A stretch of 63,984 bases of DNA, the filler included, from a bacterium (GTDB taxonomy: Bacteria; UBA9089; CG2-30-40-21; SBAY01), in assembly GCA_040757115.1 (NCBI GenBank). It is 8 parts of 8 records of this genome, joined end to end, with 100 filler letters (N's around TTAATTAATTAA, not from the genome) between each part and the next. Parts side by side here need not be neighbours in the genome. Positions count along the whole stretch, not along the records: positions 5,247 to 10,381 come from JBFLYA010000266.1; 7 more parts are not named here. One strand, given 5' to 3'. Below are positions 5,147 through 62,487 of this stretch, in pieces (within the stretch, counting starts at the first letter, position 1; each line of letters begins with the position of its first letter). The translations under genes and the position numbers were made by a program. The notes under the pieces were generated by a model. That model saw only the letters and a list, made by a program, of their open reading frames with translations. It ran no database searches and was not told where the DNA came from.

Positions 5147-5246
5147 NNNNNNNNNNNNNNNNNNNNNNNNNNNNNNNNNNNNNNNNNNNNTTAATTAATT
5201 AANNNNNNNNNNNNNNNNNNNNNNNNNNNNNNNNNNNNNNNNNNNN
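5147..5246. other. Artificial contig spacer (also 10382, 15552, 20715, 48771, 53922, 59052)
   Basis: Identical 100-nt N44-TTAATTAATTAA-N44 blocks. Confidence 0.95.
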
Positions 5247-5364
5247 ATATTTAAAAAATTCACTTGTATCCGAACATACTATTTTTGTGCCTTTTTAGGG
5301 ATATAAGTCAAGAAAAATATTTTTAAAAAAACTTAATTTTTTACTTGACATTTCACCATAAGAC

Positions 5365-5915
5365 TTTGTGAGTTGCAGACTCATGAGCGTTCTCCTGAAA
5401 ATGAATAGAATACGGATGACACGGATTAGACGGATGAGCACGGATTTTTTATTTTTTAGTAATCGGATTGAGCGGATTAATCGGACTTCTTTTCTGTTTT
5501 TTTATCTGCTCAATCCGCTAAATCCGCTTACTACTTATTTCCCTTATTGTAACCGTTCAGGTAATCCTTTACCGCAGAGACGCAGAGAAACAGAGAAGAA
5601 AATATCTTTTTTTCGTGTTTTTCGGTATTTAAAAAGGCTTAAAAACAGTTAGTCGAAAGTAAGTATTAAAAGATTATAAACAACGAAAGCCCCGAAATGC
5701 ACAAAAAAAGGGAATTTCTGTTTCTGGTGAATAGATTTTAATTTTTTCTCTGCGTCTCTGTGTCTCTGCGGTGAACGGTTACCCCTTATTTCCCTTTGCG
5801 TTCTTTGCGTGCTTGGCGTGAAACTTCCTTTCCCCTGAAAATCGGGGTTCGGGGATTCTTTTATTCCCGAGCCCCGAGTCCCGAGCCCCGAGCCCCGAGT
5901 CCCTTTATTTTCATT
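5365..5915 (-). repeat. Array of AGGAG/hairpin cassettes with nested MITE
   Basis: TTCTCCTGAAAAT at about 5390 and TTCCCCTGAAAAT at about 5830; hairpin ATG-AGT-ctgca-ACT-CAC; (CCGAGCC)n cargo. Confidence 0.7.
5549..5782. mobile_element. GTAAC...GTTAC MITE with 8-bp TSD
   Basis: CCCTTATT on both sides; arms CCGCAGAGACGCAGAG / CTCTGCGTCTCTGTGTCTCTGCGG. Confidence 0.85.
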
Positions 5916-6690
5916 CCCCTTGTTGTGTTTCTATTTTCTCACTATGTTGACGAAGTGCCTCTTTAAATCGTTCAGCCGCTTCATTATTTTGAAATTCGTC
6001 TAATCCTTGTGCTGATTCACCAAATGGATTTTTTTGCAAATTAGGCGAAGAAGGCTGTGGTGGTAACCCTTTTGAAAATTCCTGCTGAGCCTTTTCACTT
6101 TGTGATTGAAGTGCCTGGATAAATTTATCTCTTGCCTCTTTTTCTTTCTCAGTCATCGTGGTTGCTGAAGAGCCTGAAAATCCCTTATTTTTTTGCACGG
6201 CGACTTCAAAAGGATTACTTGGAGGAGATACCTCTCTTTGTGGTTTAATCTCAGGCACCCATTTTTGAGCCCATTGCTGTTCAAGCCAGGGAACAAACTC
6301 CTTATACTGAAACGGGGTCAAAGTTTGTTCGACATCTATTTTTGTCTTCTCTACAATTTCCACTGTTTTCTTATCCATATTATTTTTTTCGTCTTGCTTC
6401 TTCTCCATAGATAGTTTTTCATCTTTGAGTATCTCCTGCCATTCTTGTTGAAGGGTTTCTAATGCCTCTTTTTCTGCTTTAATAATCATCATCATCTTTT
6501 GGGTTTGCTGGGGAGTTAATGATAATCTCATCGTCATCTCATCCAAAAATGTAAAATCCGTAGCGAAATAACTAATCATTGGTCTTGTCCCAAAGCTATC
6601 TTTTTCTACCTTTTCACCTTCTTTAGCTAAAATCTGCTGTGCCATCCCCATGCTAATCATTAAAATAACCGTTACCATTATTTTTTTCAT
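5911..6690 (-). CDS. Exported helical hypothetical protein
   Basis: AGGAGG RBS, signal peptide, LSLTPQQ/LTPFQ repeats reminiscent of Spy/CpxP-like proteins. Confidence 0.75.
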   Translation of the reverse strand: MKKIMVTVILMISMGMAQQILAKEGEKVEKDSFGTRPMISYFATDFTFLDEMTMRLSLTPQQTQKMMMIIKAEKEALETLQQEWQEILKDEKLSMEKKQDEKNNMDKKTVEIVEKTKIDVEQTLTPFQYKEFVPWLEQQWAQKWVPEIKPQREVSPPSNPFEVAVQKNKGFSGSSATTMTEKEKEARDKFIQALQSQSEKAQQEFSKGLPPQPSSPNLQKNPFGESAQGLDEFQNNEAAERFKEALRQHSEKIETQQGE

Positions 6691-6720
6691 TTCAAATTCC
6701 TCCTTTAATTTAGTAATTTA

Positions 6721-6975
6721 GTAACTATTCACTACGAAGAGCACGAAGGACACGAAATGGAATTTAATGTCTTGTAATTTTCGGTAGTGTCTGACAATAA
6801 CTACAATTCTTTTAACCACAAAGCTCACAAAGAGTTTCACAAAAGAGTCAAAGATTTTTGAGAGAATAAATTTTTCCCTTTATTTCTTTGTGTATTGTTT
6901 GTGTAATTTGTGGTTAATTTCAGAGACCATCTAATTTTCTTCGTGTCCTTCGTGTTCTTCGTGGTGAATAGTTAC
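6721..6975. mobile_element. GTAAC hairpin element with nested GGT(A/G)GTGTCTGA MITE (6783-6931)
   Basis: Outer IR GTAACTATTCAC / GTGAATAGTTAC; inner element flanked by TAATTTTC direct repeats. Confidence 0.8.
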
Positions 6976-6978
6976 CTT

Positions 6979-7647
6979 TTATTTAGTTGCCACTATAGCC
7001 AGATGTCTAACAAATTGTCTTGGGAATTTTCTCGTTATCATCATAGCTAATTCATAAATCCCGGTTTTACTAAGGACAGGAATCCTATTAATAATACCAC
7101 CTAATTTGAACAAGTTAGTCGTAACCGGTTCGATTTTTACTATTTTAAACCTTCTTGACACTAAATCAATAAATTCTTGATATTTAAAATATCCTGGTAA
7201 AATAGGGACAGAAATCAGGATATATCCATCTTTTTTTAAAAGGGTATATAAATTATCAACTATTTCTAAGAGGAAATTTCGTGGAGGATAATATATTACT
7301 TCTAAACAAGTTATTAAATCAAAACTTTCAGGTTCAAATTTCAATTCGATAATATCTTGGACTGAAAAAATTACCTTGTCCCCAAATTCACTAAAATAAG
7401 TCTTACATCGATTAATAGCTATTTCAGAAATATCTACTGCATAAATTTTATCGCCGATATTTAATAATTTACTGGTAAATGCACCTTCACTACAACCTAA
7501 TTCTAATATCTGTGGATAATGTCCATGCGGAATCAGTTTAAATGAATTTTCTAATCTCACCTTTTCGGCATAGACATTTTTTGTTCCCCATGGATCCCCT
7601 TTTTTTGAATACATATCGTCAAATTTCTCTTGTTGTAATAAATCCAT
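6979..7647 (-). CDS. Class I SAM-dependent methyltransferase (NodS-like)
   Basis: DPW, ILELGCSEG, VDIS, FDLITCLEVIYY. Confidence 0.85.
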   Translation of the reverse strand: MDLLQQEKFDDMYSKKGDPWGTKNVYAEKVRLENSFKLIPHGHYPQILELGCSEGAFTSKLLNIGDKIYAVDISEIAINRCKTYFSEFGDKVIFSVQDIIELKFEPESFDLITCLEVIYYPPRNFLLEIVDNLYTLLKKDGYILISVPILPGYFKYQEFIDLVSRRFKIVKIEPVTTNLFKLGGIINRIPVLSKTGIYELAMMITRKFPRQFVRHLAIVATK

Positions 7648-7654
7648 AATAAAA

Positions 7655-7683
7655 ATTATATCAAAAATTTAATACCCTGTCAA
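7655..7683 (-). promoter_or_regulatory. Sigma70 promoter, probably leaderless transcript
   Basis: TTGACA-17-TATAAT, ATG 7 nt downstream. Confidence 0.75.
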
Positions 7684-7792
7684 CTGAATTGTAAGAATTT
7701 GTTAAAATTTTCCTTGCCTTTTTTTTAAATATATTATATAATTCAGAGGTGAAAAAGTTTTCTGACTACTATCTACTATTTTGGAGGTTGTA

Positions 7793-8674
7793 ATGAAAGG
7801 TATTATTCTTGCCGGAGGAAGTGGAACAAGGCTTTATCCCATAACGCTGGGTATTAGTAAACAACTTTTGCCGATTTACGATAAACCGATGATTTATTAT
7901 CCTCTATCCGTGCTGATGTTGGCGGGGATAAGAGAAATTTTGATCATTTCAACTCCCCATGATTTACCAAGATTTAAAGAACTCTTCGGTGATGGTTCAC
8001 AGTTAGGACTAACATTTTCTTATAAAGAACAACCTTTTCCCAATGGTCTGGCTGAGGCATTTATATTAGGGAAAGAATTTATAGGTGATGATGATGTGTG
8101 TCTCATTTTAGGAGATAATATCTTTTATGGTGATAGCTTAATTCAGTTACTAAGGAATATCGTTCAAGATATTACTACCTCAGGAGGAGCTACGGTTTTT
8201 GGTTATTATGTGAGTAATCCTCAACAATATGGAGTAGTGGAATTTGATAAAGAGGGAAAGGTTTTATCTATTGAAGAAAAACCTAAAATACCTAAATCTC
8301 ACTATGCAGTTACAGGCCTGTATTTTTATGATAATAATGTTGTTGAGATTGCTCATGGTATTAAACCTTCCTGGAGAGGAGAGTTGGAGATAACCGATGT
8401 AAATAAAAAATATTTGGAAGATAATAAACTTAAGGTTGAACTTTTAGGTAGAGGATATGCCTGGCTTGATACAGGAACCCATGAAAGTCTTCTTGAAGCG
8501 GGAGAGTTTATGGCGACTATAGAAAAAAGGCAGGGTTTGAAAATAGCCTGTATAGAAGAAATTGCCTATTCCTTAGGATACATAGACAAAGAACATTTAT
8601 TAAAGATTGGTGAACTTTTGAAAAATAGTCAGTACGGACAATATGTTTTGAGGATAATTAAAAATGAACAATGA
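7793..8674 (+). CDS. rfbA: Glucose-1-phosphate thymidylyltransferase
   Basis: [38 protein letters not shown]; start moved to ATG after GGAGG. Confidence 0.97.
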
Positions 8675-8957
8675 CCTCATTTAACTAATTCACCAATGCT
8701 CAAATGTCTACTTTAACTTATCCACCCCTTCTTTGTTGCCTAACTCTGTATAACCTGCCTACCTACCTGAACGGTTACAATAATCTTTTATGTGCTCTAA
8801 TTTATTTCTATGTCCTCTCTGTTCCTCTGCGTCTCTGCGGTAAAGGATTACTTGAACGGTTACGGATATTTTTATCCGAAAGTCTTCTTGTTTCTGTAAA
8901 CTAATTATATCAAAATTTTAATGCCCTGTTAATAGAAAAATTTTCTTCAAATGTGCA

Positions 8958-10145
8958 TTACTCATATCGAAGTGCCTCAACAGGATTAAGTTTAGCCGCC
9001 AGATGTGCGGGATAGACACCAAAAAATATCCCGACCAGACAGGAAAAAGAAAAACCAAGCATAATCGCCCAAAATGAGAGAAAGATATCTAAATTCACCA
9101 TCTTTACTATTAATAAAATCATACCCATTGCCGCACCAATCCCGATTATTCCGCCGGTAAGACAGAGTATCAGGCTTTCAATCAAAAACTGCCAGAGTAT
9201 ATCTTTTTTAGTGGCACCAACCGCCTTTCTGATACCAATTTCACGCGTCCGCTCTCGCACTGCTACTAACATAATATTCATAATCCCAATTCCTCCAACC
9301 AACAAAGAAATAGCCGCAATACTACTAATCACAATAGAAATGATATTCGTTATCGTAGAGAGCATTTCAATCATTTCATCCAGGGTAACAACTTCCCATA
9401 CCTTTCTATTAGAAAAGGTTTTAAACAGATAGTTTTCTACTCGCTCTTTGAGTCCAGAGACACTCACTCCATTCCTGGCTTTAAAGAATACCAGATATAT
9501 TTCTTGTGCACCAAGTAGCCGTTTCACACAAGAAGATGGTAAAAGTAAGGCATTGTTAGGGTCCATTGGTCCCATCTTTAACTTAAAACCCATTAACCCA
9601 ATGACCTTGAAATATGTCCCTTCTATATTTATCTCTTGTCCCAAATTTTTTTGCTTTCCAAAAAGTGAATTAAAGAGTTGATGACCGACGACGCAGACCT
9701 TTTCTGATGATTTAACCTCATTATCGGTGAATTTTCTACCTTTTATAATCAGGTCTAATCCTCGCACCTCAAACCAGTTGGCTGGCACACCAATCACCGT
9801 AATCAGTTTATTTTCACCCCGAACCTTCATTGGAGTAGATAAAAAATACTGGGGGGCTAAATCAGCAATTCCCGGGATGTCCTTTTTCATTGTTTCAAGT
9901 TGAGTTTCAGTCAGATAGGCAAATTTATCCACCCGAGTTTCCATCATCTGGTCATTATGGGCAACGACGAGATTAGTTCCAGAACCAGTAATTTCACGAA
10001 TAATTAGCCTTTTCCCTTCCTCACCAATGGTAATAATTGCCACAATCGAAAAGACACCAATAGTAACCCCTAAAATCGTTAGAAAGGAACGCAGTTTGTA
10101 TTGCCTTAAACTCTTTAATGAAGACAAAATATAATCTACGAACAA
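8958..10145 (-). CDS. MacB/FtsX-family ABC transporter permease
   Basis: RSFLTILGVTIGV, GGIGIMNIMLVAVRERTREIGIRKAVGA, PVEALRYE; likely TTG start at 10145, upstream ORF extension is repeat DNA. Confidence 0.92.
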   Translation of the reverse strand: MFVDYILSSLKSLRQYKLRSFLTILGVTIGVFSIVAIITIGEEGKRLIIREITGSGTNLVVAHNDQMMETRVDKFAYLTETQLETMKKDIPGIADLAPQYFLSTPMKVRGENKLITVIGVPANWFEVRGLDLIIKGRKFTDNEVKSSEKVCVVGHQLFNSLFGKQKNLGQEINIEGTYFKVIGLMGFKLKMGPMDPNNALLLPSSCVKRLLGAQEIYLVFFKARNGVSVSGLKERVENYLFKTFSNRKVWEVVTLDEMIEMLSTITNIISIVISSIAAISLLVGGIGIMNIMLVAVRERTREIGIRKAVGATKKDILWQFLIESLILCLTGGIIGIGAAMGMILLIVKMVNLDIFLSFWAIMLGFSFSCLVGIFFGVYPAHLAAKLNPVEALRYE

Positions 10146-10148
10146 GGT

Positions 10149-10299
10149 TCCTCCTGAAAATGAGGAAGTAGAAAGTAGAGAGTAGAAAGTAAAGAAAACA
10201 TCACTGCTCACGCTTATCTCCCCATCTCCCACCTTCTATCTCCTACCTACTATTTTCATCCTCCTATGTGCCGAGTTGTCGGCATGGCCGTTTCTCCTA
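10149..10299 (-). repeat. Single AGGAG/hairpin cassette supplying the RBS of the permease
   Basis: Minus strand AGGAGAAACGGCC ATG-CCGA-caac-TCGG-CAC...ATGAAAAT-cargo-ATTTTCAGGAGG-aacc-TTG. Confidence 0.8.
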
Positions 10300-10491
10300 C
10301 AATTAGATTATATCATACCTAATCCATTATGTCAAAAGGATTTTGTGTCAATATTCAGAATCCCGTGTTTCAAAATTCTATNNNNNNNNNNNNNNNNNNN
10401 NNNNNNNNNNNNNNNNNNNNNNNNNTTAATTAATTAANNNNNNNNNNNNNNNNNNNNNNNNNNNNNNNNNNNNNNNNNNNNTAAAATTTTT

Positions 10492-15551: not shown

Positions 15552-15792
15552 NNNNNNNNNNNNNNNNNNNNNNNNNNNNNNNNNNNNNNNNNNNNTTAAT
15601 TAATTAANNNNNNNNNNNNNNNNNNNNNNNNNNNNNNNNNNNNNNNNNNNNATGCCCTGGAGTTACCTTATCAACCAGGGAAAACAGTCAAATCATTTTG
15701 TGGGGATTCATACTGTAGTGCCAAAACTCAACCTCTCTGCTCTGTAAGTTGTTGATAATACAAGACTTATTTTTTTAAACGGCGAACTTGGG

Positions 15793-15941: not shown

Positions 15942-15949
15942 CTGATATT

Positions 15950-16243
15950 CCTTCTGAAAATAAGGAAGTAGAAAGTAGAGAGTAGAAAGTAATGAAAACA
16001 TCATTCCTCACGCCTATCTCCTTACCTCCCACCTTCTATCTCCTACCACTATTTTCATCCTCCTTTCTCCTAAAAATAGCCGTGAGAATAGAACACGGAT
16101 GACACGGATTTAACGGATTTTCGCTGATTTTTTTCTCTTTTTTCTATCTTATATCTATCCGCGAATATCCGCATCATCAGCGTGCTATTATTTTTCATCG
16201 TCATTTGTGCCCACTCCCTGTGGACATGGCCGTTTCTCCTAAA
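15950..16243 (-). repeat. Two AGGAG cassettes in tandem
   Basis: ATG-TCCAC-aggga-GTGGG-CAC hairpin; cargos shared with 34260, 10160 and 63300. Confidence 0.75.
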
Positions 16244-17428: not shown

Positions 17429-17526
17429 AAAGCGGTTATCGTCTATCGTTGATGGTTTATAGTTTATAGTGTATAGTTGATGGTTGATAGTCTATAAACT
17501 ATAAACGATAAACTATAAACGATGTT

Positions 17527-18501
17527 CTACCCACCAATTGCTACCATCTGGCGATTGCCTTTTAAATTAAAGTTGCCAGAGATAGGCTTTGATTTTATTG
17601 CCTGAATGATGATTTGCGTCAATTCATTATCACTGGCACCTTCTCGCAATGGACCCTTTAAATCAAATTCCGTTGTTTGGCCCAGGCAAACCCGCAAATG
17701 CCCATCAGGGGTTAAACGCAGGCGATTACACCTCTGACAAAAATGGTCACTTATCGACGAGATAAATCCCAGCTTGCCGCAAGCCCCCTTTATCTGGTAA
17801 TATTCTGCAGGACCGTTACCTGCTTCTACCTTAGCGGGAACAAGGTGGAAGTATCTTGCCAGTCTTTCTTTTACTACCCAGTTAGGCAGATACTCCCTCT
17901 GCCATTCAAGCTTGTCTTGCCTGCCAATAGGCATAAACTCGATAAATCTAACCTCAAGTGCTCTATCCAGGGTTAGCCAGGCAAAATCCTCTACCTCATC
18001 AGCATTTATCCCATTCATTACTACCATATTTACCTTTACTGGTTTTAAGTTGGCTCTTAATGCCGCATCAATCCCGGATAAAACAGCCTTAAGATTACCG
18101 CCTCCGGTAATTAGGGTATAACGCTGTTCATCTAAGGAATCCAGGCTGATATTAACCCTCTTGAGACCTGCCTGTTTCAATAAGGGGGCAGATTGGGCTA
18201 AGAGTGTCCCGTTGGTGGTTAATGCTAAATCCTCTAACCCTTCAATCCGGAATAGTTTTTCAATCAAATGGTTAACATCCCGTTTAATCAAGGGCTCACC
18301 ACCGGTAATCCGTATCTTTTTTACCCCCAGCCGCACCATTAAAGAGGCAATCCGCACAATCTCTTCATACCTTAAAACCTCAAAATGGCTCTTCTTACCA
18401 ATCTCTTCAAAAGGACGGCAATAAAGACACCTGAGGTTACACATATCCGTAATCGAAAGTCGTAAATAATCAATCTGGCGATGATAATTATCTATGAGCA
18501 T
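17527..18501 (-). CDS. moaA: GTP 3',8-cyclase
   Basis: CNLRCLYC radical SAM motif, FCQRCNRLR, C-terminal IGG. Confidence 0.97.
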   Translation of the reverse strand: MLIDNYHRQIDYLRLSITDMCNLRCLYCRPFEEIGKKSHFEVLRYEEIVRIASLMVRLGVKKIRITGGEPLIKRDVNHLIEKLFRIEGLEDLALTTNGTLLAQSAPLLKQAGLKRVNISLDSLDEQRYTLITGGGNLKAVLSGIDAALRANLKPVKVNMVVMNGINADEVEDFAWLTLDRALEVRFIEFMPIGRQDKLEWQREYLPNWVVKERLARYFHLVPAKVEAGNGPAEYYQIKGACGKLGFISSISDHFCQRCNRLRLTPDGHLRVCLGQTTEFDLKGPLREGASDNELTQIIIQAIKSKPISGNFNLKGNRQMVAIGG

Positions 18502-19694: not shown

Positions 19695-19748
19695 TATATC
19701 TCCTGAAAATGGGCTGTCTGACCTGTCGGACAATCCCCTATGTTTTCC

Positions 19749-20714: not shown

Positions 20715-20814
20715 NNNNNNNNNNNNNNNNNNNNNNNNNNNNNNNNNNNNNNNNNNNNTTAATTAATTAANNNNNNNNNNNNNNNNNNNNNNNNNNNNNN
20801 NNNNNNNNNNNNNN

Positions 20815-26373: not shown

Positions 26374-26410
26374 CAAATTAAGATAACATATAGTATACTA
26401 TTTTCAGGAG

Positions 26411-28762
26411 GTGAACAAAATGAGGTTAATATGGTTCATTATAATAAGTATTGGCTTAATTGGGCAGGCTTTTTCTGAAGAGATAACCGAAGATTATAAA
26501 GCAGAGGCACAATGGCATTATGAAATGGCTTGTGATTGCCTGAAAAAAGAAGACAAAAATCTTACCGAGGCAATCAGAATACTTCACGAGATTGTTGATT
26601 ACTATGACCCTGACCACTTGCAGGCTTATGAATTACTTATTAAATGTTATGAAGAACTTAAGAATGAGGATAATTTAAAAAGTATCCAGCAAAGATACAC
26701 CCAAAGGTTACAAATTCAAAAAGAACAGAAACCAAAGAAAGACCAAATCACTGAATATTACACTGGAGGGACGGAAACAAACCAGATTAATGAATTAATC
26801 CAAAATCTTAAATTAGCGGATGCAGAAAAACGATATAATGCGGCTGAAAAATTAATCAATAAAGGGGATTTAGTCGTTTCAGCTTTAATTAAGGCACTTG
26901 AAAGTAATGATTTGGTTTTGCAAGGTATGGCGTGCTATATCTTAGGGAAAATAGGAAATAACCAGGCAGTAGAGCCACTTATTAATTTATTAAAGCAAGG
27001 TGTGCCAGCCAGCAAAATTACCTCAGCAAAGGCATTAGGAGATATTCAGGATAAAAAGGCTATTGTGGAGCTTATCAATGCCTTATCAGAGCCTTATTTT
27101 AATCATTACGAAGGGAAATATAAGATAAGGGAGGCGGCGGCAGATGCCCTGTCTAAATATGGTGAAAAGGCACTACCAAAACTTATCCACTCAGCCAGAA
27201 GTGATAATGAGGCAACACGCTGGTTCTCCTTAGAGGCATTGCAACGGATGGAATCTATCCCACAAACAGCTACATTGACCTTTATAAATGCCCTGATAGA
27301 TAAAAATGACCAGGTCAAATTGACCGCAGTTAAGGCACTTGGAAAAATAAGAGATGAAAACTCTATCCCTTCGCTTGCCCGCACACTAAAAAGTAACAAT
27401 GCAACTATCCGATATTTTGCTGTTCAATCTCTTGGTGAAATTAATTCAAAAGAGTGCATAATGCCTCTTCTGGGAGCATTAAATGATGAGGATACTCAAG
27501 TAGTCAATGAGGCAATCAAGGTTTTGGTAAAACTTGGGGCAAAAGACGCTATTAATTCCATTCTGGTGATTGCTCAGGATGAAAAACGACCTGTGACCTC
27601 AAGATGGTATGCTATTCGGGCTATTGGGCAGTTGTATGCTCTTGAAGGAATGCCAATTTTAATCAAGGCATTATCAGATGAAAATGAGTGGATAAGAAGT
27701 GCGGCCGCAACGGCTTTAAACATTCCAAAAACAATCGAGGATAAAGAATTATTAGAAAAGAAAAAAAAGGCACTGACTTCACTTGGACTTAAATTCGCCC
27801 TCACCTCTTCTGCGACCTACGAAGAGGCACGAAAGGCAAGTATTTCAAAGGCACTAAAATTCCTTGTTGCCAATCAACACGAAGATGGCCATTTCCAGAG
27901 TGATATTTTCCCATTAGGCGTAACTCAATTAGCACTTTTATGCCTTTTAAAAGAAAGAATAAATGAAGAAGACCCGGTAGTTAAAAAAGGTATTGAATAT
28001 ATGCTCAAACATGCAAACCCAGATGGTAGTTATCTCTCAATAAGTGAGCCGGAAAAGATAAAATGCTCGTATAATACCTCGTTAGCGATAATGGTTTTAT
28101 CGGCAACTGAAAACCCAATGTATAAAAATCTGGTTGAAAAAAGTATATCCTGGCTTTTGAGTATTCAAGATAAAGATGGCGGTTTTGGGTATGTTGCAGG
28201 TGGCAGGTCAGATTTAAGTTCAACAGAGTTTGCCTTAATGGCATTAGATTCTGGATATAAATTCTTAGGACGAGCCAAAACCGATGATGTCTGGATACGG
28301 GCATTGGATTACTTAACTCAGCAACAAAATTCAGATGGTGGGTTTGGATATATCAAAGAAAAAGGCACTGTATCTTATGGAAGTATGGGTGCGGCGGGTT
28401 TAATTGGGTTTTTACTTTGTAATTTAGACACCGCGGACATTCGAGCAAAAAATGCCCTGCACTGGATTAGCCAGAATTATACCTTAAATGAAAATCCATA
28501 CGGACCGGCTAAATGGTACGAATATTATATTCATAGCCTGGCTTTTGCACTTGAATTGACTAAAAAAGAAATCATAATTGATAGATATGGTAAGGTGCAT
28601 TATTGGTATCCAGAGATAGTCAATAAATTGATAAGAATGCAGGATAAAGAAGGTTTTTGGGTAATCTCGCAAGACTGCCTTTTTACAACATATTTTACCC
28701 AGGTATTACAAATAAAACCTATGCCAGAAAGCATTGAGTTAAAATTAGAAAATGAAAATTAA
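26411..28762 (+). CDS. Exported TPR + HEAT-repeat + prenyltransferase/squalene-oxidase-repeat protein
   Basis: Signal peptide; ALGKI-type HEAT repeats; QDKDGGFGY, QNSDGGFGY, QDKEGFW repeats. Confidence 0.85.
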   Translation: MNKMRLIWFIIISIGLIGQAFSEEITEDYKAEAQWHYEMACDCLKKEDKNLTEAIRILHEIVDYYDPDHLQAYELLIKCYEELKNEDNLKSIQQRYTQRLQIQKEQKPKKDQITEYYTGGTETNQINELIQNLKLADAEKRYNAAEKLINKGDLVVSALIKALESNDLVLQGMACYILGKIGNNQAVEPLINLLKQGVPASKITSAKALGDIQDKKAIVELINALSEPYFNHYEGKYKIREAAADALSKYGEKALPKLIHSARSDNEATRWFSLEALQRMESIPQTATLTFINALIDKNDQVKLTAVKALGKIRDENSIPSLARTLKSNNATIRYFAVQSLGEINSKECIMPLLGALNDEDTQVVNEAIKVLVKLGAKDAINSILVIAQDEKRPVTSRWYAIRAIGQLYALEGMPILIKALSDENEWIRSAAATALNIPKTIEDKELLEKKKKALTSLGLKFALTSSATYEEARKASISKALKFLVANQHEDGHFQSDIFPLGVTQLALLCLLKERINEEDPVVKKGIEYMLKHANPDGSYLSISEPEKIKCSYNTSLAIMVLSATENPMYKNLVEKSISWLLSIQDKDGGFGYVAGGRSDLSSTEFALMALDSGYKFLGRAKTDDVWIRALDYLTQQQNSDGGFGYIKEKGTVSYGSMGAAGLIGFLLCNLDTADIRAKNALHWISQNYTLNENPYGPAKWYEYYIHSLAFALELTKKEIIIDRYGKVHYWYPEIVNKLIRMQDKEGFWVISQDCLFTTYFTQVLQIKPMPESIELKLENEN

Positions 28763-29968: not shown

Positions 29969-30070
29969 GGTCTAACCCCACCATCTTTTCCATTTTCCCT
30001 TCATTACATCCTGAACACTTACCATTATTTTTAGTTGACAAAAATAAGGATGTAGGATAGAATAAATTTG

Positions 30071-31105
30071 ATGAAAATCAATCCTGATAAAATATTACTC
30101 ATTCAATTAAGGAGAATAGGTGATGTTTTGATGACTACGCCGGCGGTTAAATCACTTAAAAAACGATTTCAAGAGACAAAAATTACATTCTTGACCGAAC
30201 CGCCATCTGATGAAATCTTTCGTCACAATCCTTATGTAGATGAAATCTTACTCCATAATCGCCATTTTAAAGCAAAGGATTATCTGAAATTCATCCAAGA
30301 ATTACGCAAAAGGCGATTTGATTTAGCCATAGATTTTTTTAGTAATCCTCGCAGTGCACAGATAGCCTTTTTTAGTGGGGCAACACATCGAATTGGATTT
30401 AACTTTCGTGGTCGAGCCTGGTTATATACCTCAAATGTAAATTTACCTCAGGATAAAAATCTTTATTCCGCCATTCATAAATTACATCTGTTAAAACCAC
30501 TGGGAATAGATGTAGAAGATTGTCAAATTGAGTTTTTTTGTTCATCACAAGATTATGAATATGCCAGGGAACTAACAAGAAAGTTAGGAATTACGGCTAA
30601 TGATTTCGTTATCGCCCTTTGTCCAGTTTCAAGGCGAGAATATAGAGTTTTGCCAGCAGAAAAATTTGCCTGGATTTCAGATAGTTTAATTAAAAAATAC
30701 AACGCTAAAATTCTATTTATGTGGGGTTATGATGAAAAGGGTTTTATTGATAAGGTAAAGTCCCGGATGAAGTATGCCGAGAGGACATTCGATGATTATG
30801 AAATCCCAACGATTAGTCAGGTTAGGGCTCTTTTTGAAAAAGTCAATCTTTACATCGGAAATGATAATGGCATCAGACATATTGCGATTGCCGCTGGAAC
30901 TCCAACGGTAACTGCTTTTGGACAATCAAACCCTTTTAACTGGACACCACCTGAGAGTAAATTCCACCAGTTTGTAGATTATGACCCCGGTTGTAAAGAA
31001 AAGTGTAATGCTGCCAGATGTAAAGTCTATCGCTGTATCACTGAGATAAGTGAGATAGAGTATCTTAAAAAGATTGAAGAGTTGATACAACGCATTGGTC
31101 ATTAG
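30071..31105 (+). CDS. GT9 LPS heptosyltransferase-family glycosyltransferase
   Basis: RRIGDVLMTTP, GNDNGIRHIAIAAGTP; TTGACA-17-TAGAAT at 30035-30063. Confidence 0.92.
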   Translation: MKINPDKILLIQLRRIGDVLMTTPAVKSLKKRFQETKITFLTEPPSDEIFRHNPYVDEILLHNRHFKAKDYLKFIQELRKRRFDLAIDFFSNPRSAQIAFFSGATHRIGFNFRGRAWLYTSNVNLPQDKNLYSAIHKLHLLKPLGIDVEDCQIEFFCSSQDYEYARELTRKLGITANDFVIALCPVSRREYRVLPAEKFAWISDSLIKKYNAKILFMWGYDEKGFIDKVKSRMKYAERTFDDYEIPTISQVRALFEKVNLYIGNDNGIRHIAIAAGTPTVTAFGQSNPFNWTPPESKFHQFVDYDPGCKEKCNAARCKVYRCITEISEIEYLKKIEELIQRIGH

Positions 31106-31130
31106 TTATTTGGCTAAACACTTACGATTT

Positions 31131-31448
31131 GAGGAAAAACGGGCATGAGTCTGCGACTCACAAAGGGGGATGAAAATTAAGGGACTCGGGACTCGGGGCT
31201 CGGGATTCGGGAATAAAAGAATCCCCTAACCTCTTAATCTCCCGCCAGCGGGGAGATAAAAAAATAAAAATCTGTGTCCTCTGCGAAATCTGCGGATTAT
31301 TTTCAGGGGAAACGGACATGAGCTAGGGCTCACAAAGGGCAATGAAAATGGGAGAAGGACAACCCCCTAACCCCCTTTATTAAGGGGGAATTGCTGAGAG
31401 TTTCTTTCTTCCCGAATCCCGAGTCCCGAGTCCCGATTTTCAGGAGGA
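31131..31448 (+). repeat. Two AGGAG/hairpin cassettes in tandem, ending in the RBS of the next gene
   Basis: ATG-AGTC-tgc-GACT-CAC and ATG-AGC-tagg-GCT-CAC; terminal TTTTCAGGAGG then ATG 31456. Confidence 0.85.
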
Positions 31449-31455
31449 AGTAAAA

Positions 31456-32043
31456 ATGTTTGATGTAATGTTAATAAAGGAATTTTATACTGATTATCTG
31501 GTTAAATGGCATCAGGATGAGTATCTTGAGATTGAGAATTACGAAGAAATTTATCAGATTATTTATAACTTGCATTTGACTAATTATCGTTTGTGGCATC
31601 AAGAAGATATTGCTCGGAGAACAGATGTGGCTGATAGGGTTATTGCAGATGTAAAGCAGAAGATTGATAAGTTAAATCAGAATAGAAATGATACTATTGA
31701 AAAGATTGATGAATATCTATGCCAGATATTACACCCACAAAACCTTTCTTTGCCAATGAATTCAGAAACCCCGGGAAGTATTCTGGACAGAATGTCGATA
31801 CTTTCGCTTAAGATATACCATATGACTGAGGAGACAAAAAGGATAGATGTAGATTCTGAACATATAAAAACCTGCCAGGAAAAAGTCCATATCTTGAAAG
31901 AACAATTCGATGATTTAAAAAATTGCCTTGAGGTTTTGCTTGAGGAAATTTTTACTGGTAAGAAAAGACTTAAAGTCTATCGCCAATTTAAGATGTATAA
32001 TGACCCACGGCTAAATCCACAACTTCGAGAAATTACCCACTAA
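31456..32043 (+). CDS. DUF4254 family protein
   Basis: LWHQEDIAR, IDKLNQNRND, NSETPGSILDRMSI, YRQFKMYNDP. Confidence 0.9.
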   Translation: MFDVMLIKEFYTDYLVKWHQDEYLEIENYEEIYQIIYNLHLTNYRLWHQEDIARRTDVADRVIADVKQKIDKLNQNRNDTIEKIDEYLCQILHPQNLSLPMNSETPGSILDRMSILSLKIYHMTEETKRIDVDSEHIKTCQEKVHILKEQFDDLKNCLEVLLEEIFTGKKRLKVYRQFKMYNDPRLNPQLREITH

Positions 32044-32070
32044 TCTTCTCCTTTCGGCTAATCAAAAAGT

Positions 32071-32929
32071 GTAACCGTTCAGGTAATCCTTTACCGCAGA
32101 GACGCAGAGAAACAGAGAAGACATAGAAATAAAGTAACTATTCAGCCACTGATTAACACGGATTAGCACGGATAAAAAAATAAAATCAGTGTTTCATCTG
32201 TGTCCATCTGTGGCTGAATAGTTATCAATAAATTTTAATTTTTTCTCTGCGTCTCTGTGTCTCTGCGGTGAACGGTTACGAGGAAAATATCTTTTTTTCG
32301 TGTTTTTCGCGTTTTTCGGTGTTTATAGCAGTTATTATTCAAAACTTTACTTAGAATTAAATACTCGTAACTACTCGTAGTGAATTAACAAGTTATGCGT
32401 GAACCATTACTACACTATGTCAAATTAGTGCTATAACTCTCTATATTTTTAGACAATTATGTCCATTTGGCTTGCCTTCCCCTATTTCTTATGATAAAAT
32501 GGGAAAAAACAGAATGTGAAAATTCTACCTCATCCTTCATTTAATGTCCCATAGGGACAATATATCGGTAGAAATAAATATCATACAAATAATGTCCCAT
32601 AGGGACAATATATCGGTAAATGGTTTTCCATAAATTTTCTACCAATATATCGTTCCTACGGAACTGATTGATTTATCTATCTATTCCTACCGATATTATG
32701 ATCCTAACGGAACGATTATTCTCATGCCTTATTTATGGGTATTATCTTATGTAAACTTCCAGTTAATAACCGCTATAAAAAGGCTTAAAAACAGTTAGTC
32801 GAAAGTAAGTATTAAAAGATTAATAAACAACGAAAGACCCGAAATGCACAAAAAAAGGAAATTTCTGTCTCTGGTGAATAGATTTTAATTTTTTCTCTGC
32901 GTCTCTGTGTCTCTGCGGTGAACAGTTAC
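32071..32929. mobile_element. GTAAC MITE with 8-bp TSD containing nested elements
   Basis: CAAAAAGT at 32063-70 and 32930-37; internal GTAAC hairpin at 32134-32225; TA-flanked 450-bp insert at 32326-32775. Confidence 0.88.
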
Positions 32930-33370
32930 CAAAAAGTCCAATAATTGAACAAAAATTTATCAGTAGTTTAAAATTTAATCATAGTTGTTTAAAAGTTAGA
33001 AAAAAGGTTTGAAGTGAGTTTTTAATTTACCGAAAGAGCATCTTTCTATAACTTTAGTTGTATCAATATGTTAGATATGAAGTAGTGGTCAGGGGCTTTA
33101 GTTAGCATAAGATTTGCTCCTCTATATTATTGTAAAATCCCTTTCAATCGTCAACCCTATCGTAAAAGGGAAATGGGGCAAAATAAAGATGTTAAATACC
33201 CTAAATAAGGTGGTCAAATAGAAAAATTGACACAGATTTTTGCCCCAGGACTAATTAAAATTGGTAACTGGTTAAATGGTAAGTAATTACCATTCACCAG
33301 TTATCATTACCAAATTAAAGGAGGTGAAAAAGGAGGTCCTTCTTAAAAAAATTAAAGGAGGAAAGAAAAA

Positions 33371-34054
33371 ATGAAAAGATTAATTATTGGGTTAGTAAGT
33401 ATTTTAGGACTGCTATGGGCAACCAGTGCCATAGCCGATGTGGAAGACAAAACAGTTCAGGTGAAATTAGTGGTTCTCCAGATTATCGACTTAGAGGTAA
33501 CAGCACCAGATACGGTTGTCCCCACAGCAGAAGATTATGCAGTGGATGCGGCACATGATCAGAAATATAGCTGGGTGGCAGATTGTGACCCATCACCAGA
33601 TTCGATGGGATTTGCAGACAGAGCAGATGCGCTACAAGTAACGATATTCACAAATGCGAAAAGTGGAGCGACAGTTTATTTCTACGGTAATCCCAATCCT
33701 GTTCATAACGAATCTCTACAGAATAAAGATGTTTATTTATCCGTGAACCGCGAGAAAACCTATGTGTTAATGAACGCGCCAGACGGAACACCAGCCGCAG
33801 AGGATGATTTAGATGTAACTGAGGGTATAGATGGTGCATGGGCAAATGCTAATACAGCAATTGATGGGACTCACAAGTGCAAGTGGATACAAACCCACAA
33901 TGAAGCTAAAGAGTTTTTTGGAGTTACAGAAGCTACGGAAGCAGCAAGACTTTGGTCCCTCCAATTAGGAATTGCCTGTTTATCCGAATATACGGAAAGT
34001 ACAGACGCTGGCTACACGATGGACCTAACATTTATCTTGATGCCTCGTGTTTAA
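33371..34054 (+). CDS. Exported beta-rich protein, pilin/WxL-like subunit candidate
   Basis: Strong RBS, signal peptide, N-terminal VQVKLVV strand, C-terminal AGYTMDLTFIL strand. Confidence 0.65.
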   Translation: MKRLIIGLVSILGLLWATSAIADVEDKTVQVKLVVLQIIDLEVTAPDTVVPTAEDYAVDAAHDQKYSWVADCDPSPDSMGFADRADALQVTIFTNAKSGATVYFYGNPNPVHNESLQNKDVYLSVNREKTYVLMNAPDGTPAAEDDLDVTEGIDGAWANANTAIDGTHKCKWIQTHNEAKEFFGVTEATEAARLWSLQLGIACLSEYTESTDAGYTMDLTFILMPRV

Positions 34055-34102
34055 TTTAACTCAACTTCTCAACATAAAAAAGGACCTCCTTTTCATAAAA
34101 AT

Positions 34103-34134
34103 AAAGAGGGAGAAAAAATATTCTCCCTCTTTTT
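34103..34134 (+). terminator. Rho-independent terminator
   Basis: AAAGAGGGAGAA / TTCTCCCTCTTT followed by T-tract. Confidence 0.75.
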
Positions 34135-34209
34135 ATTTTTTTCCCCATATAATCTCCATATTTCCTTCAGACACACGGAAAAAGGTTACCTGCTTTTATT
34201 ACCCCCCAG

Positions 34210-34506
34210 TCAGGAAAAACGGTCATCTCCACGACGTGGACACAAAGAACAATGAAAATAGCACGCTGATGACGCGGAGGTCGCGGATATTTCGCGGATA
34301 AAAAATATATTATAGAAAAATCCGCTAAAATCCGTTAAATCCGCGTTATCCGTGTGCTATTTTAACATTATTTTTCAGGAGAACGCTCATGAACCGTAGG
34401 TTCACAACAGGAGAATGAAAATAGGGGAAAAACAGGGTGGAGGAAAGATTTTCTCTCTACTCTCTACTCTCTACTTTCTACTCTCTACTTCCTATTTTCA
34501 TGAGAA
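34210..34506 (+). repeat. Two AGGAG/hairpin cassettes in tandem
   Basis: TCCAC-gac-GTGGA-CAC and ATG-AACC-gta-GGTT-CAC hairpins, ATGAAAAT...ATTTTCA brackets. Confidence 0.8.
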
Positions 34507-34584
34507 TTCCCTATTTCACTAACGCATTACCTTCACCCTATTTTTATTATTGACAAACTGTAAAGTAAATGGTATAGTTTAATT

Positions 34585-35544
34585 ATGCCAAATAATTATG
34601 AACAGATTGATTTAAGTAAAATAAAGACATATCCAATAAAAAACCGTAAAAATCTGGTCAAACTAAAAGATTTTGTTAGACTTCTACCCAGAGATGCTGC
34701 TCTTAAAGAGTTTATTGATTCCCTGCCCGATATTTTAAAAGGGGCTGATTTGAAGGAATTAATAAAGTCTATCTGCCAGGCATATCACCAAAAGAGACCT
34801 ATTTTATGGGCTTGTGGAGCCCATGTAATAAAATGTGGGTTGTCACCCCTGATTATTGAACTAATGAAAAAAGGTTTAGTAAATTGTCTTTCGCTAAATG
34901 GTGCCGGGATTATTCATGATTTTGAGATTGCCTTGATAGGTGAAACATCAGAGGATGTCTCAAAAAGTCTTTTAGATGGTTCCTTTGGTATGGCAAAGGA
35001 AACCGGTGAACTAATTAATGAGGCAATTATTGATGGGGCAAGACATAATCTTGGGATTGGCAGGGCAGTTGGTAAGATGATTTCAGAACAAAAACTTAAA
35101 TATCGAGAATATAGTATTTTATATCAGGGGTTTGAATTAAATATCCCTATTACAGTCCATGTGGCTATTGGCACGGATATTATTCATCAACATCCAAATG
35201 CCTCAGGTGAGGCAATTGGTAAAGGCAGTATGATTGATTTTCACATTTTTACTAACCAGGTGGCTAATTTAGAGGGTGGGGTGTTTATAAATATAGGTTC
35301 GGCGGTAATCATCCCGGAGGTATTTTTAAAGGCATTAACGATTGTTCGAAATTTAAACTACACGGTGGAAGATTTTGTCACTGCTAACTTTGATATGATG
35401 ATACAATATCGACCAATGTCCAATATCGTTAAAAGACCAACGCTAAAAGCCGGAAAAGGATATTCATTTATTGGTCATCATGAAATAATGATGCCACTTT
35501 TGGCTTATGGGATATTGGCGGAAATTCAGAGCAACGAAGGTTGA
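34585..35544 (+). CDS. Deoxyhypusine-synthase-like (DHS-fold) protein
   Basis: GAHVIKCGL, NGAGIIHDFE, TVHVAIGTDIIH, GSAVIIPEVFLKA, GHHEIM; TTGACA-17-TATAGT just upstream. Confidence 0.75.
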   Translation: MPNNYEQIDLSKIKTYPIKNRKNLVKLKDFVRLLPRDAALKEFIDSLPDILKGADLKELIKSICQAYHQKRPILWACGAHVIKCGLSPLIIELMKKGLVNCLSLNGAGIIHDFEIALIGETSEDVSKSLLDGSFGMAKETGELINEAIIDGARHNLGIGRAVGKMISEQKLKYREYSILYQGFELNIPITVHVAIGTDIIHQHPNASGEAIGKGSMIDFHIFTNQVANLEGGVFINIGSAVIIPEVFLKALTIVRNLNYTVEDFVTANFDMMIQYRPMSNIVKRPTLKAGKGYSFIGHHEIMMPLLAYGILAEIQSNEG

Positions 35545-35622
35545 TATTAACTGCGTTTACCCTGTGTCTATGCATAAAAATTAATTGCATTTTATTTAGT
35601 AATATGTTATAATGTGAGGTAA

Positions 35623-36060
35623 ATGAATAAAATATTGGTTATCCACGGTCCTAATCTAAATTTATTAGGGAAAAGAGAACCCGAAGTCTATGGGAATATA
35701 ACCCTTGCGGAGATTAATCAAAGATTAAAAGAATTAGCCAATGAAAAGCAAATAGACCTGAAAATCATTCAGAGTAATCATGAAGGTGAGATTGTAGATG
35801 AGATTGGCAAGGCAGACGCTAAATTTATTATAATTAATCCCGGGGCATTTACGCATACAAGTATTGCTATTCGTGATGCCATCGCCGCCACAGGTATTCC
35901 AACGATAGAGGTGCATCTATCTAATATTTATAAAAGAGAGGAATTCAGGCATAAATCCCTGATTGCACCTGTTTGTATTGGACAAATTAGTGGTTTTGGA
36001 GTGACTGGTTATCTGTTAGCCTTCCAGTCTGCTATTGAATTGATGAAAAGTGGAGGGTAG
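35623..36060 (+). CDS. aroQ: Type II 3-dehydroquinate dehydratase
   Basis: [28 protein letters not shown]. Confidence 0.97.
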
Positions 36061-38503: not shown

Positions 38504-39255
38504 GTTTCAGGAGAAACGGTCATGAGCCTGCGGCACACAAAGGGGGATGAAAATTAAGGGACTCGGGACTCGGGGCTCGGGATTCGGGAATAAAAGAATC
38601 CCCTAACCTTTTAATCTCCCGCCAGTGGGGAGATAAAAAAATAAAAATCTGTGTAATCTGCGAAATCTGCGGATATTTTTAGGAGAAACCAGGTATGAAC
38701 CTGCGGTTCACAAACGAGGATGAAAATTGAGCATAGAGATTAGAGATTAGCAAGAGTGCAGGTTCTAATTCACTAATTCTCTAATCTCTAATTAACTATT
38801 TTCAGGAGAAACGGACATGAGCCAAGGCTCACAAAGGGCAATGAAAATGGGAGAAGGACAACCCCCTAACCCCCTTTATTAAGGGGGAATATGTGTTCTA
38901 AACCAGAGGATACGAGTCTGTGGATACTATACTAATTCGCTAATCTCTAATTCACTAATTCGCTATTTTCAGGGGAAATAGTGGTAGGAGATAGAAGGTG
39001 GGAGGTAAGGAGATAAGCGGGAGGAGTGATGTTTTCTTTACTTTCTACTTTCTACTCTCTACTTTCTACTTCCTATTTTCAGGAGAAACGGACATGAGCC
39101 AAGGCTCACAAAGGGCAATGAAAATGGGAGAAGGACAACCCCCTAACCCCCTTTATTAAGGGGGAATATGTGTTCTAAACCAGAGGATACGAGTCTGTGG
39201 ATACTATACTAATTCGCTAATCTCTAATTCACTAATTCGCTATTTTCAGGGGAAA
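38504..39255 (+). repeat. Five-unit head-to-tail AGGAG cassette array
   Basis: Repeated TTTTCAGGAGAAACGGACATG...CACAAA...ATGAAAAT junctions separated by four different cargos; units 3 and 5 identical. Confidence 0.9.
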
Positions 39256-39620
39256 TGTATAACTGAAAGGTAATGAGTCTTGCGAAGGACTAAAATTTCC
39301 CATTTTTCATTTCCTATTTTACATTTTACATTTATTTTTCCTTTGCGTCTCTGCGATGAATTAGTCTAATCGCACAGGTGGGGATTTTTCCGTGTTTCAT
39401 CCGTGTCCATCTGTGGCTGAATAGTTACGATTTAGTTTATAATTCTTCGTGCCCTTCGTGTTCTTCGTGGTTTTAAAAGATGTGAGAAAGGTTAATCTAA
39501 CCGCACAGGTGGAAAAAATTACCTTTGCATCCTTTGCGTCCCCAAAAATTTATAAAAATTTTCTATTGACTTTTGGGAGAAAAGTATGATATACTATAAT
39601 TAGAATGAAACACAGGTGTG

Positions 39621-39816
39621 AGTCCCTACCGTGTTTGTGATGAAATGGTTTTTTTTTGAGCTAGCACCTTTTTATAGGGAGCTTTACAACTCTGAGTGTG
39701 GCATGCAGACTGCCTTTTAAAAAGGTGTAAGTAGAAGCATCAAAGCACTTAGGTGAGCACCCACTTACACAAAAGGGTTCAAAAATTCCATTTCACACGG
39801 CATTATGGTGGGGACT
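39621..39816 (+). ncRNA. ssrS: 6S RNA
   Basis: About 195 nt with closing stem GTCCC...GGGAC; motifs GGGAGCTTT, GCACCCAC, GGGTTCAAAA, CACGGCATT as in Firmicutes-type 6S; TTGACT/TATACT promoter upstream. Confidence 0.8.
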
Positions 39817-39884
39817 TTTTTTGTGGGGACAAATAGGGTCAAACCAATACTGTTTGGAATGATTTTTGGCAGGATTCAAATCAG

Positions 39885-42623: not shown

Positions 42624-42709
42624 TCTGGTTATCTCCTGTTTAAACCACTGAGAACACAAAGATGATGTACTAAACTCTGGCAAATTTGCAAACTTCTTTG
42701 AAAAACTTA

Positions 42710-42872: not shown

Positions 42873-42877
42873 AGATT

Positions 42878-48770: not shown

Positions 48771-48880
48771 NNNNNNNNNNNNNNNNNNNNNNNNNNNNNN
48801 NNNNNNNNNNNNNNTTAATTAATTAANNNNNNNNNNNNNNNNNNNNNNNNNNNNNNNNNNNNNNNNNNNNGAGGATGTGG

Positions 48881-62463: not shown

Positions 62464-62487
62464 AATTTCGTGAAGTCCTATTCAAAA

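Follow-up and report, generated by a model that had tools for sequence, protein, structure and literature searches.

The question raised by this stretch of DNA is why the structured, non-coding repeat cassettes that precede several of its genes have a Shine-Dalgarno (SD) motif at each of their two junctions. The window, by which we mean the whole stretch of 63,984 nucleotides (filler included), consists of eight contigs of an uncultured groundwater bacterium (GCA_040757115.1, a draft genome of 462 contigs, 4.32 Mb and 36.8% G+C) that are joined by runs of N around the linker TTAATTAATTAA. These joins are located at positions 5147-5246, 10382-10481, 15552-15651, 20715-20814, 48771-48870, 53922-54021 and 59052-59151, and no feature is readable across them. 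The initial annotation of this DNA proposed that the cassettes target and rebuild SD sites. This proposal has held up: AGGAGAA is present at empty junctions, and the AGGRG sequence on the gene side is inherited with the cassette family. We therefore favour, with a probability that we place at roughly three in four, the view that the cassettes are non-coding and mobile and have a specific sequence as their target, the SD-like motif AGGAG(AA). Insertion occurs at AGGAG(AA), in one orientation, and leaves the element's own motif on the side of the gene.

The cassette that prompted the question (10149-10298, minus strand) lies near the end of contig C186 (window 5247-10381, JBFLYA010000266.1), in front of a gene for a MacB/FtsX-type ABC permease with a TTG start (8958-10145, minus strand; Pfam MacB_PCD 8.1e-35, FtsX 4.8e-22). 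Read in the direction of the gene, it is preceded at its promoter side by a left AGGAGAA copy (10292-10298), most probably the native target motif. A small hairpin module of 26 nt (10266-10291) makes up the 5' part of the unit, and in it a covarying stem is set between a CATG flank and a CACA flank. An internal AGGAGGA (10259-10265) then directly precedes TGAAAAT, the first of the 7-bp inverted ends (TGAAAAT and ATTTTCA) of a large hairpin of the CTACTTY heptamer family (10156-10258; families D7 and D13). The right AGGAGGA copy (10149-10155) is the working SD of the permease gene, with 4 nt from the end of GGAGG to the TTG, such that ACC is followed by TTG at 10145-10143. The AGGAG core that had been reported at both junctions is indeed found there, as AGGAGAA on the left and AGGAGGA on the right, and it recurs at the internal joint (AGGAGGA, 10265-10259). 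The TTG start is backed by a 67%-identical orthologue that has no cassette: residues 1-395 align, and the ATG of the orthologue aligns with the TTG. Upstream, a promoter-like site judged by consensus match (10307-10335, minus strand; TTGACA-17 nt-TATAAT, 12/12 matches, with TG before the second hexamer) ends 8 nt before the left AGGAGAA, and therefore the cassette appears to reside within the 5' leader, which would be very short were the cassette removed.

Genome-wide, the repeating unit spans ~110-170 nt and is composed of a small hairpin, an AGGAGGA-like joint, TGAAAAT, a large hairpin, ATTTTC and the unit's own AGGRG. Neighbouring units are arranged head to tail in direct orientation, with a linker of ~50 nt that comprises ATTTTC, AGGRGAA, the small hairpin, an AGGAGGA-like 7-mer and TGAAAAT; the leaders of genes are lengthened by ~110 to 560 bases as a result of these cassettes. 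The genome holds 316 TTTTCAGG[AG]G sites, and 236 of these have repeat DNA upstream when repeats are defined as 16-mers seen at least four times, a mask that covers 14% of the genome. A 12-mer mask was useless, since it covers 57% of this AT-rich genome, and a definition based on perfect hairpin arms was dropped for the repeat mask after it captured just 8 cassettes, because the arms pair through G-T. The most common continuations after ATTTTCA are GGAGAA (145) and GGGGAA (87).

The two hairpins of the unit differ in character. Large hairpins fall into many families, mostly inverted runs of 7-nt repeats, whose arm ends include CTACTTCC, CTAATTCGC, CCCGAGTCCC, CTAATTAAC and CTGCGGAT. In 180 units TGAAAAT and ATTTTCA form perfect inverted ends around the large hairpin, but they do not bound the whole unit that is inherited together; the 7-mers before TGAAAAT in these 180 units conform to A-G-G-A-G-G-A. 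The small hairpin, which begins 7-8 nt from the left junction, occurs in 275 instances with 66 distinct cores, and its terminal stem has at least 4 bp in 215 of the 275. The CATG and CACA flanks are constant, and the stems between them take at least six forms that compensate fully (AACC/GGTT, 49; AGCC/GGCT, 44; CCCAC/GTGGG, 38; TCCAC/GTGGA, 21; AGTC/GACT, 19; CCGAC/GTCGG, 5), a pattern indicating that this hairpin is conserved in shape and not in sequence. A scan of the whole window against Rfam gave only 6S RNA at the gathering score, and a search with one array at E values up to 1 gave four weak hairpin-like matches far below threshold. Each linker also carries a conserved ATG 7-8 nt after its AGGAG (for example at 63420-63452, minus strand, and 38799-38850, plus strand), and this ATG opens a frame of ~10-21 codons, as read by eye, that runs into the next hairpin. 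Judged by these features, each unit looks like a small translation start.

The right ends of cassettes are adjacent to start codons far beyond chance. A start was called where an open reading frame (ORF) that is 60 codons or longer begins with ATG, GTG or TTG 2-12 nt downstream of GGAG. This rule gives a start for 67 of the 113 cassette ends with unique DNA downstream, most often at 6-7 nt. The spacings are 4 nt (6 ends), 5 nt (12), 6 nt (18), 7 nt (18), 8 nt (6), 9 nt (3), 10 nt (2), 11 nt (1) and 12 nt (2), which total 68 by the inclusion of one start-abutting end that has repeat DNA downstream. When the sites were shifted by 15-200 nt, the mean was 13.75 starts and the maximum was 23 in 200 trials, and random positions gave 7.1 on average and at most 15. 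Outside repeats, a start is found at 2-12 nt after 1207 of 7772 AGGAG sequences (15.5%) and after 146 of 1084 AGGAGAA sequences (13.5%). A stricter sort divides the 236 ends into 92 internal ends with a full linker, 3 internal ends with a short linker, 46 ends followed by repeats, 2 at contig ends and 93 terminal ends. Starts follow 61 of the terminal ends at 2-12 nt and 8 at 13-40 nt (in several of the latter a second, native SD intervenes), and the remaining 24 lack one. The expectation that the distance from right ends to start codons would depart from random is thus borne out by a strong enrichment 2-12 nt upstream of starts, both in the 61 of 93 and in the 67 of 113. Non-coding, cassette-free AGGAGAA motifs occupy an SD position in 61 of 230 cases, and therefore sequence preference alone does not yield the observed 66%. 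We infer that selection has acted in addition to targeting, and that the apparent safe harbour upstream of genes would reflect both.

If AGGAGAA is the target, unoccupied sites should carry it, and in three clean pairs of empty and occupied sites (two orthologous, one paralogous) the empty partner has one AGGAGAA, located precisely where the insert lies in the other. One such junction, atpF-atpH, lacks a cassette here (GACC-AGGAGAA-GATACC), and in the sister species G001 it contains two units between AGCAGAA and AGGAGAA. Contig C167 has a single AGGAGAA where the orthologous site of G001 has three units (390 nt) with AGGAGAA on both sides, and no gene start follows. In the paralogous pair, contig C25 is empty with AGGAGAA and contig C178 has one unit with AGGGGAA on both sides. 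None of the clean pairs that we found has an empty allele without AGGAG at the insertion point, which is the outcome that the initial annotation had named as contrary to its proposal. Moreover, nested units are found inside AGGAGAA-like motifs of two other repeat families, and comparison with the sister genome reveals that the boundary between conserved gene and variable cassette falls exactly at the motif.

These cassette-specific empty sites come from a search seeded with flanking DNA. When 325 kb of the sister genome was compared by gaps between high-scoring segment pairs, many insertion differences were seen, and all those with an empty partner belong to other repeat families. An untidy case (G001 locus L017 versus contig C95) was left out of the clean pairs. 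It is a 1.1-kb insertion in the sister species that has a small coiled-coil/membrane ORF plus cassettes and ends in TTTTCAGGAGAA before a gene, and its empty allele is without AGGAG. At atpF-atpH (G001 locus L010 versus contig C150), the last atpF codons are also lost to the insertion, and the frame finishes instead with residues encoded by the cassette, up to the TGA within TGAAAAT.

The empty sites bear directly on the idea that SD-ended elements insert at random in intergenic DNA, with no target specificity, and that selection retains the copies that happen to be well spaced. This idea accommodates the evidence, given below, that the gene-side motif is borne by the element, that its distance to the start is unlike that of native genes and that the spacing at rplN has changed. 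However, it does not anticipate AGGAGAA exactly at the junction in all three clean empty sites, one of which has no gene start behind it, nor GGAG in 26 of 27 upstream array flanks, where no selection is obvious, nor the nesting of inserts in AGGAGAA-like motifs of other repeats. Random insertion is disfavoured, and we regard it as highly improbable.

Which of the two flanking motif copies belongs to the element can be judged from how each varies. Across 102 complete units, the A or G state of the gene-side copy (after ATTTTC) tracks the hairpin family (mutual information 0.358 versus 0.216 +/- 0.031 when shuffled, a value reached in 1 of 1000 shuffles), whereas the copy before the small hairpin is independent of family (0.198 versus 0.215, reached in 666 of 1000). 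The rightmost copy, for instance, is GGGG in 17 of 20 units of the TAATTCGC family and GGAG in 17 of 20 of the CTACTTCC family. In arrays, the leftmost copy is GGAG in 26 of 27 units, and 8 of these 27 have GGGG as their right copy; among native sites of this kind, AGGGGAA accounts for about a third (579 of 1658), and 26 of 27 would then arise about once in 10,000 by binomial arithmetic. The gene-adjacent hexamers (n = 68) are GGAGAA (41), GGGGAA (9), GGAGGA (8), GGAGAG (7) and others (3), the named forms being GGAGAA and single transitions from it. GGAGGT, which leads the native SDs (177 of 716), is found in 0 of these 68. Likewise, the distance from motif to start has a mode of 6-7 nt for cassettes and 8-9 nt for native SDs, about 2 nt shorter. 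At rplN, (G)AGGAGA is 8-9 nt from the ATG in four cassette-free relatives and 5 nt from it here. On these sequence patterns, the upstream copy appears to be the old chromosomal motif and the gene-side AGGRG that of the element. The family-linked right copy, the unlinked GGAG on the left, the non-native hexamers and spacing, and the rplN case together therefore point to an SD site that is rebuilt by the element.

The same motif copies could instead be read as a target-site duplication. The cassettes would then be ordinary MITEs (miniature transposable elements with inverted repeats) moved by a cut-and-paste DDE-type enzyme, with 7-bp terminal inverted repeats and a 7-bp duplication at AGGAGAA, which amounts to the same targeting achieved by another chemistry. 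The perfect inverted ends TGAAAAT and ATTTTCA agree with this explanation, as do the 7-nt direct repeats that flank the insert in the three clean pairs and are reduced to one copy in the empty partner, and the paralogous occupied site with identical AGGGGAA on both sides. In addition, left and right 7-mers match one another better than shuffled pairs do (4.72 versus 4.55 +/- 0.04, with 0 of 2000 shuffles reaching this value). Nevertheless, a duplication would treat both copies alike, and only the right copy covaries with the cassette family; the copy before the small hairpin does not. The predominance of GGAG among leftmost copies (26 of 27), when 8 of the 27 right copies of the same units are GGGG, is also against a duplication. 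Furthermore, the inverted ends enclose the large hairpin only, even though the inherited unit includes the small hairpin, and no full-length element with the same ends turned up in a search that was not exhaustive. We consider the MITE explanation unlikely.

Counts of the 14-mer at the right end are 175 for this genome, 161 for the sister species, 24 for a second genus in the same family and 0-3 for each of 28 other relatives. A 16-mer that spans the linker is present in 3 of the 25 species genomes that make up our collection for the phylum. At least 120 metagenome loci match a 16-mer of the linker; none of the matches listed has the full linker, and these were set aside as chance matches. Of 37 ends in 20 loci of the sister species, 13 were flagged at starts (two of the 13 are linker-like), and 7 of 31 ends abut starts in the second genus; one gene bears a cassette in both genera. 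Twelve gene starts had a match in the G001 DNA examined, and ten were compared after two were dropped (one a repeat match, the other a 72% paralogue). All ten orthologous starts are occupied in both genomes, and the gene-proximal hairpin family differs at seven of them even though the coding DNA is 97-99.7% identical. Thus, the arrays turn over far faster than point substitutions accumulate, which requires excision as well as insertion.

This turnover is relevant to whether the cassettes are instead host regulatory leader modules, kept for tuning translation or mRNA stability and spread by recombination, and hence not selfish. The preservation of hairpin shape by compensating changes would be expected of such modules, and the most common family folds ~13 kcal/mol better as sense RNA. 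The large hairpin at the permease gene has a predicted energy of -46 kcal/mol on the sense strand versus -34.9 kcal/mol on the antisense strand, and a predicted 6-bp stem can pair its last heptamer repeat with the SD (10167-10148). The AGGAG and ATG at native spacing in each linker are in keeping with regulation as well. In contrast, modules kept for tuning would not be expected to differ at 7 of 10 orthologous starts amid nearly identical coding DNA, to serve genes as unrelated as those for ATP synthase, ribosomal protein L14, transporters and a DUF protein, or to have copies without a following gene (24 of 93). Other families lack the sense-strand bias or have the opposite one. We rejected sense-strand RNA structure as a general property of the cassettes, since the sense strand is better in 95 of 142 units but this excess comes from one family group, with the others neutral or reversed. 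Predicted accessibility of the SD is equal in cassette genes (0.47, n = 68) and native genes (0.40, n = 200; p = 0.17, no difference). The inserted structure may alter expression, but an origin as host regulatory modules seems to us improbable.

On the reading that we prefer, namely mobile elements aimed at AGGAG(AA), a unit would insert immediately 3' of a chromosomal AGGAG, such that the old motif would remain on the upstream side of the insert and the AGGRG at the element's 3' end would take up the distance from the start codon that the old one had. Further units would land beside earlier ones and create head-to-tail arrays, because the end of the element resembles its target. Insertions inside genes would presumably be lost, and those at real ribosome-binding sites would keep initiation intact and persist. 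With regard to chemistry, we tentatively suggest, at somewhat less than even odds, a single-strand 'peel and paste' reaction by a trans-acting HUH tyrosine enzyme of the IS200/IS605 or RAYT (repetitive extragenic palindrome-associated tyrosine transposase) type. Such an enzyme would explain the hairpins recognised by shape, the asymmetric target, the clean empty sites and the fast turnover. The genome contains Y1_Tnp/RAYT-like genes, with seven Y1_Tnp matches. The best of these (151.8 bits; C119:1846-2208, minus strand, outside the window) lies in an open frame of 1120 residues, far above the size of a normal IS200-type transposase.

A bolder version of targeted insertion can be framed by analogy with the ends of IS200/IS605 elements, in which a guide pairs with the cleavage site. 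The cassettes might be a self-contained system that recognises the ribosome-binding sequence via a guide within the element. Units would leave and re-enter so frequently that the leaders of ~60 or more genes would be hypervariable arrays shuffled in the manner of integrons, and the mini-frames formed by SD and ATG could relay ribosomes and diversify translation rates in the population. We view this as a rather long shot.

Several observations weigh against insertion at AGGAG(AA) by such elements, or limit the confidence that can be placed in it. No cassette right end lies within 1.5 kb of any of the seven Y1_Tnp matches, and genes for Y1_Tnp proteins, IS110-type DEDD enzymes and reverse transcriptases do not track the cassettes, as they are also present in cassette-free relatives (one of which has nine Y1_Tnp matches). 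The 24 terminal ends of 93 that lack a nearby gene start fit poorly with a preference for ribosome-binding sites, and the spacing at rplN means that the site is not rebuilt at exactly its old distance. The C25/C178 pair needs an extra substitution under any model, given that the occupied site has AGGGGAA and the empty one AGGAGAA. The two nested cases have junctions that are 3-5 nt short both of a 7-bp duplication and of simple insertion 3' of AGGAG. Finally, gene starts were called by a crude ORF rule and not by a gene finder, many of the 462 draft contigs end inside cassettes, and the comparison with the sister species covers ~370 kb of its 4.7-Mb genome.

The fragmented state of the draft genome invites the suspicion that repeats have been misjoined to gene starts in a metagenome bin. 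Many of the 462 contigs start or end in cassette repeats, and public contigs over the region break at every repeat. However, only ~13 nt of shared sequence separate the unique spacer from the family-specific hairpin arm, and hence single reads span the junction; furthermore, the same junctions are present in three separate assemblies. An assembly artefact is therefore exceedingly improbable. The public sequencing runs that contain this DNA are three DNA runs from one groundwater metagenome study, and none are RNA. Contigs from these runs over positions 30000-36000 gave no readable empty allele, as they break at repeats and the joints come from other copies of the repeats.

The cassettes are akin to known small non-autonomous elements, and their unusual feature is the self-regenerating target. 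No small element that targets SD sequences was found in the literature searched (open-licence PubMed Central papers and bioRxiv preprints). Palindrome-associated transposable elements (PATEs), which are gene-less derivatives of IS200/IS605, and repetitive extragenic palindromes (REPs) with their paired REPIN forms are moved by Y1 HUH transposases (TnpA and RAYT). Like them, the cassettes are small, non-coding and rich in hairpins, and they leave clean empty sites. They also appear to be oriented one way with respect to a short asymmetric target, which is retained on the left, and their subterminal hairpins would be recognised by shape, as the covarying stems suggest. Y1_Tnp or RAYT-like genes are also present in the cassette genome. 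Unlike PATEs and REPINs, the cassettes have an SD motif as their target and repeat that target at their right end, no Y1 gene is flanked by cassette ends and Y1 genes are also found in a cassette-free relative. The inverted-doublet arrangement of REPINs is not seen among the cassettes, whose units are direct, head to tail and of mixed families.

Two further systems offer partial parallels. The small dispersed repeats (SDRs) of Nostoc and its relatives, which Elhai and colleagues reportedly described in Genome Research in 2008, are said to be hairpins of 21-27 nt whose shape is kept by compensating changes. They are reportedly embedded in tandem heptamer repeats and mini-transposons, with one family confined to a specific 8-mer target. 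We know of no link between these repeats and ribosome-binding sites. The cassette host belongs to a different phylum and the sequences appear to differ; the cassette genome has only three HIP1 sites. Integrons hold exchangeable cassettes, with attC imperfect palindromes, head to tail on one platform. Like integron arrays, the arrays described here are head to tail and differ sharply in content between close relatives, whereas the cassettes are non-coding, have other boundary motifs and are spread over ~90 or more dispersed arrays.

Other near parallels are elements treated by Delihas (2011, PMC3184786). Passages of this paper describe Neisseria REP2 and Borrelia IR-A/IR-B as dispersed stem-loop repeats of 120-150 bp that lie directly upstream of unrelated ORFs and supply a ribosome-binding site, and REP2 also carries a promoter and ATG. 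The cassettes share with REP2, as there described, a ribosome-binding site at the end of the repeat and immediately before ORFs (61 of 93 terminal ends). They differ in that the spacer and start codon belong to each gene and the promoter-like site of the permease gene is outside the cassette. Those passages present REP2 and the Borrelia repeats without the target specificity, empty sites or mixed-family arrays that are seen with the cassettes (PMC3184786). The mycobacterial interspersed repetitive units (MIRUs) are described there as units of 40-100 bp in operons that are co-transcribed with flanking genes and can be in tandem copies, with empty and filled sites that have short direct repeats and with small frames that touch neighbouring genes (PMC3184786). 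The cassettes likewise occupy intercistronic sites (atpF-atpH and before rplN) and have empty and filled sites with short direct repeats. However, MIRU arrays repeat one unit, as far as those passages describe them, whereas adjacent cassette units are of different families, and the direct repeats of MIRUs are given there as tetranucleotides and not as an SD motif, with SD targeting absent from that description (PMC3184786).

If our interpretation is correct, an element that targets the ribosome-binding motif and replaces it with its own end would have a neat way to insert near genes without killing them. Small bacterial repeats are known to land in intergenic DNA. For annotation, the consequence would be that long, structured leaders in genomes of this kind are not necessarily regulatory RNAs. 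The content of the arrays would also be a very fast-evolving marker for strain typing, and the occupied leaders would constitute a natural test of how much upstream structure an SD site tolerates.

Elsewhere in the window, the initial annotation had placed cassette ends before five genes in all, two of them (15941 and 26411) as probable, and three of these placements are sound: the permease TTG at 10145, the ATG at 31456 and the ATG at 15941 all follow cassette right ends. A two-unit array (31132-31455, plus strand) precedes the DUF4254 gene, with a left AGGAAAA copy at 31132-31138, a right end TTTTC-AGGAGGA at 31437-31448 and a 7-nt spacer before the ATG at 31456. The gene that starts with the ATG at 15941 encodes a NIR_SIR domain and is preceded by a cassette of the CTACTTCC family (15942-16078, minus strand), with a short linker that lacks the small hairpin between it and the cassette before it. 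The right end, TTTTC-AGAAGGA (15960-15949), has a degraded motif and is followed by a 7-nt spacer (15948-15942). The other two sites are not cassette ends, because the DNA upstream of each is unique in the genome. There, TTTTCAGGAG(G) precedes the ATG at 19694 of an MFS_MOT1 molybdate transporter gene (19700-19709, minus strand) and the gene named at GTG 26411 (26401-26411, plus strand), whose start is likely the ATG at 26420 instead. Genome-wide, thirteen non-cassette sites that abut starts have a 10-14-mer of TTTTCAGGAG(G), and these could be native look-alikes or the footprints of lost cassettes.

Two more arrays were characterised. A two-unit array in which a CTAATCTC family unit is followed by a CTACTTTC family unit (63295-63560, minus strand) has no long-ORF start after its right end, and its predicted fold is -58.9 kcal/mol for the sense strand and -39.3 kcal/mol for the antisense strand. 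A long array of at least four units (38700-39256, plus strand) includes a 277-nt duplication of family D3. Within it, an exact 184-nt repeat at 277-nt spacing (38796-39256, plus strand) shows that a pair of units was recently duplicated in tandem. The gene for a 6S RNA (Rfam RF00013, 79.2 bits; 39620-39818, plus strand) is located ~350 nt downstream of this array.

The window also holds repeats outside the cassette system. A second family of miniature elements has inverted ends of the GTAACCGTTCAGG type and repeat arms of the CGCAGAGAC type, with copies at 5548-5783, 32070-32280, 32823-32930 and 62159-62464 and at loci L037 and L031. This GTAACCGTTCAGG-ended family has presence/absence sites between the genome and its sister, and one copy is nested in a cassette hairpin. 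Long palindromic runs of 7-nt repeats (CTATAAA-type plus complement) are found at 17436-17550 and 42703-42890 without the TGAAAAT/ATTTTC frame. The sister genome has a comparable heptamer palindrome that has grown in length immediately upstream of an SD (locus L039 versus contig C159).

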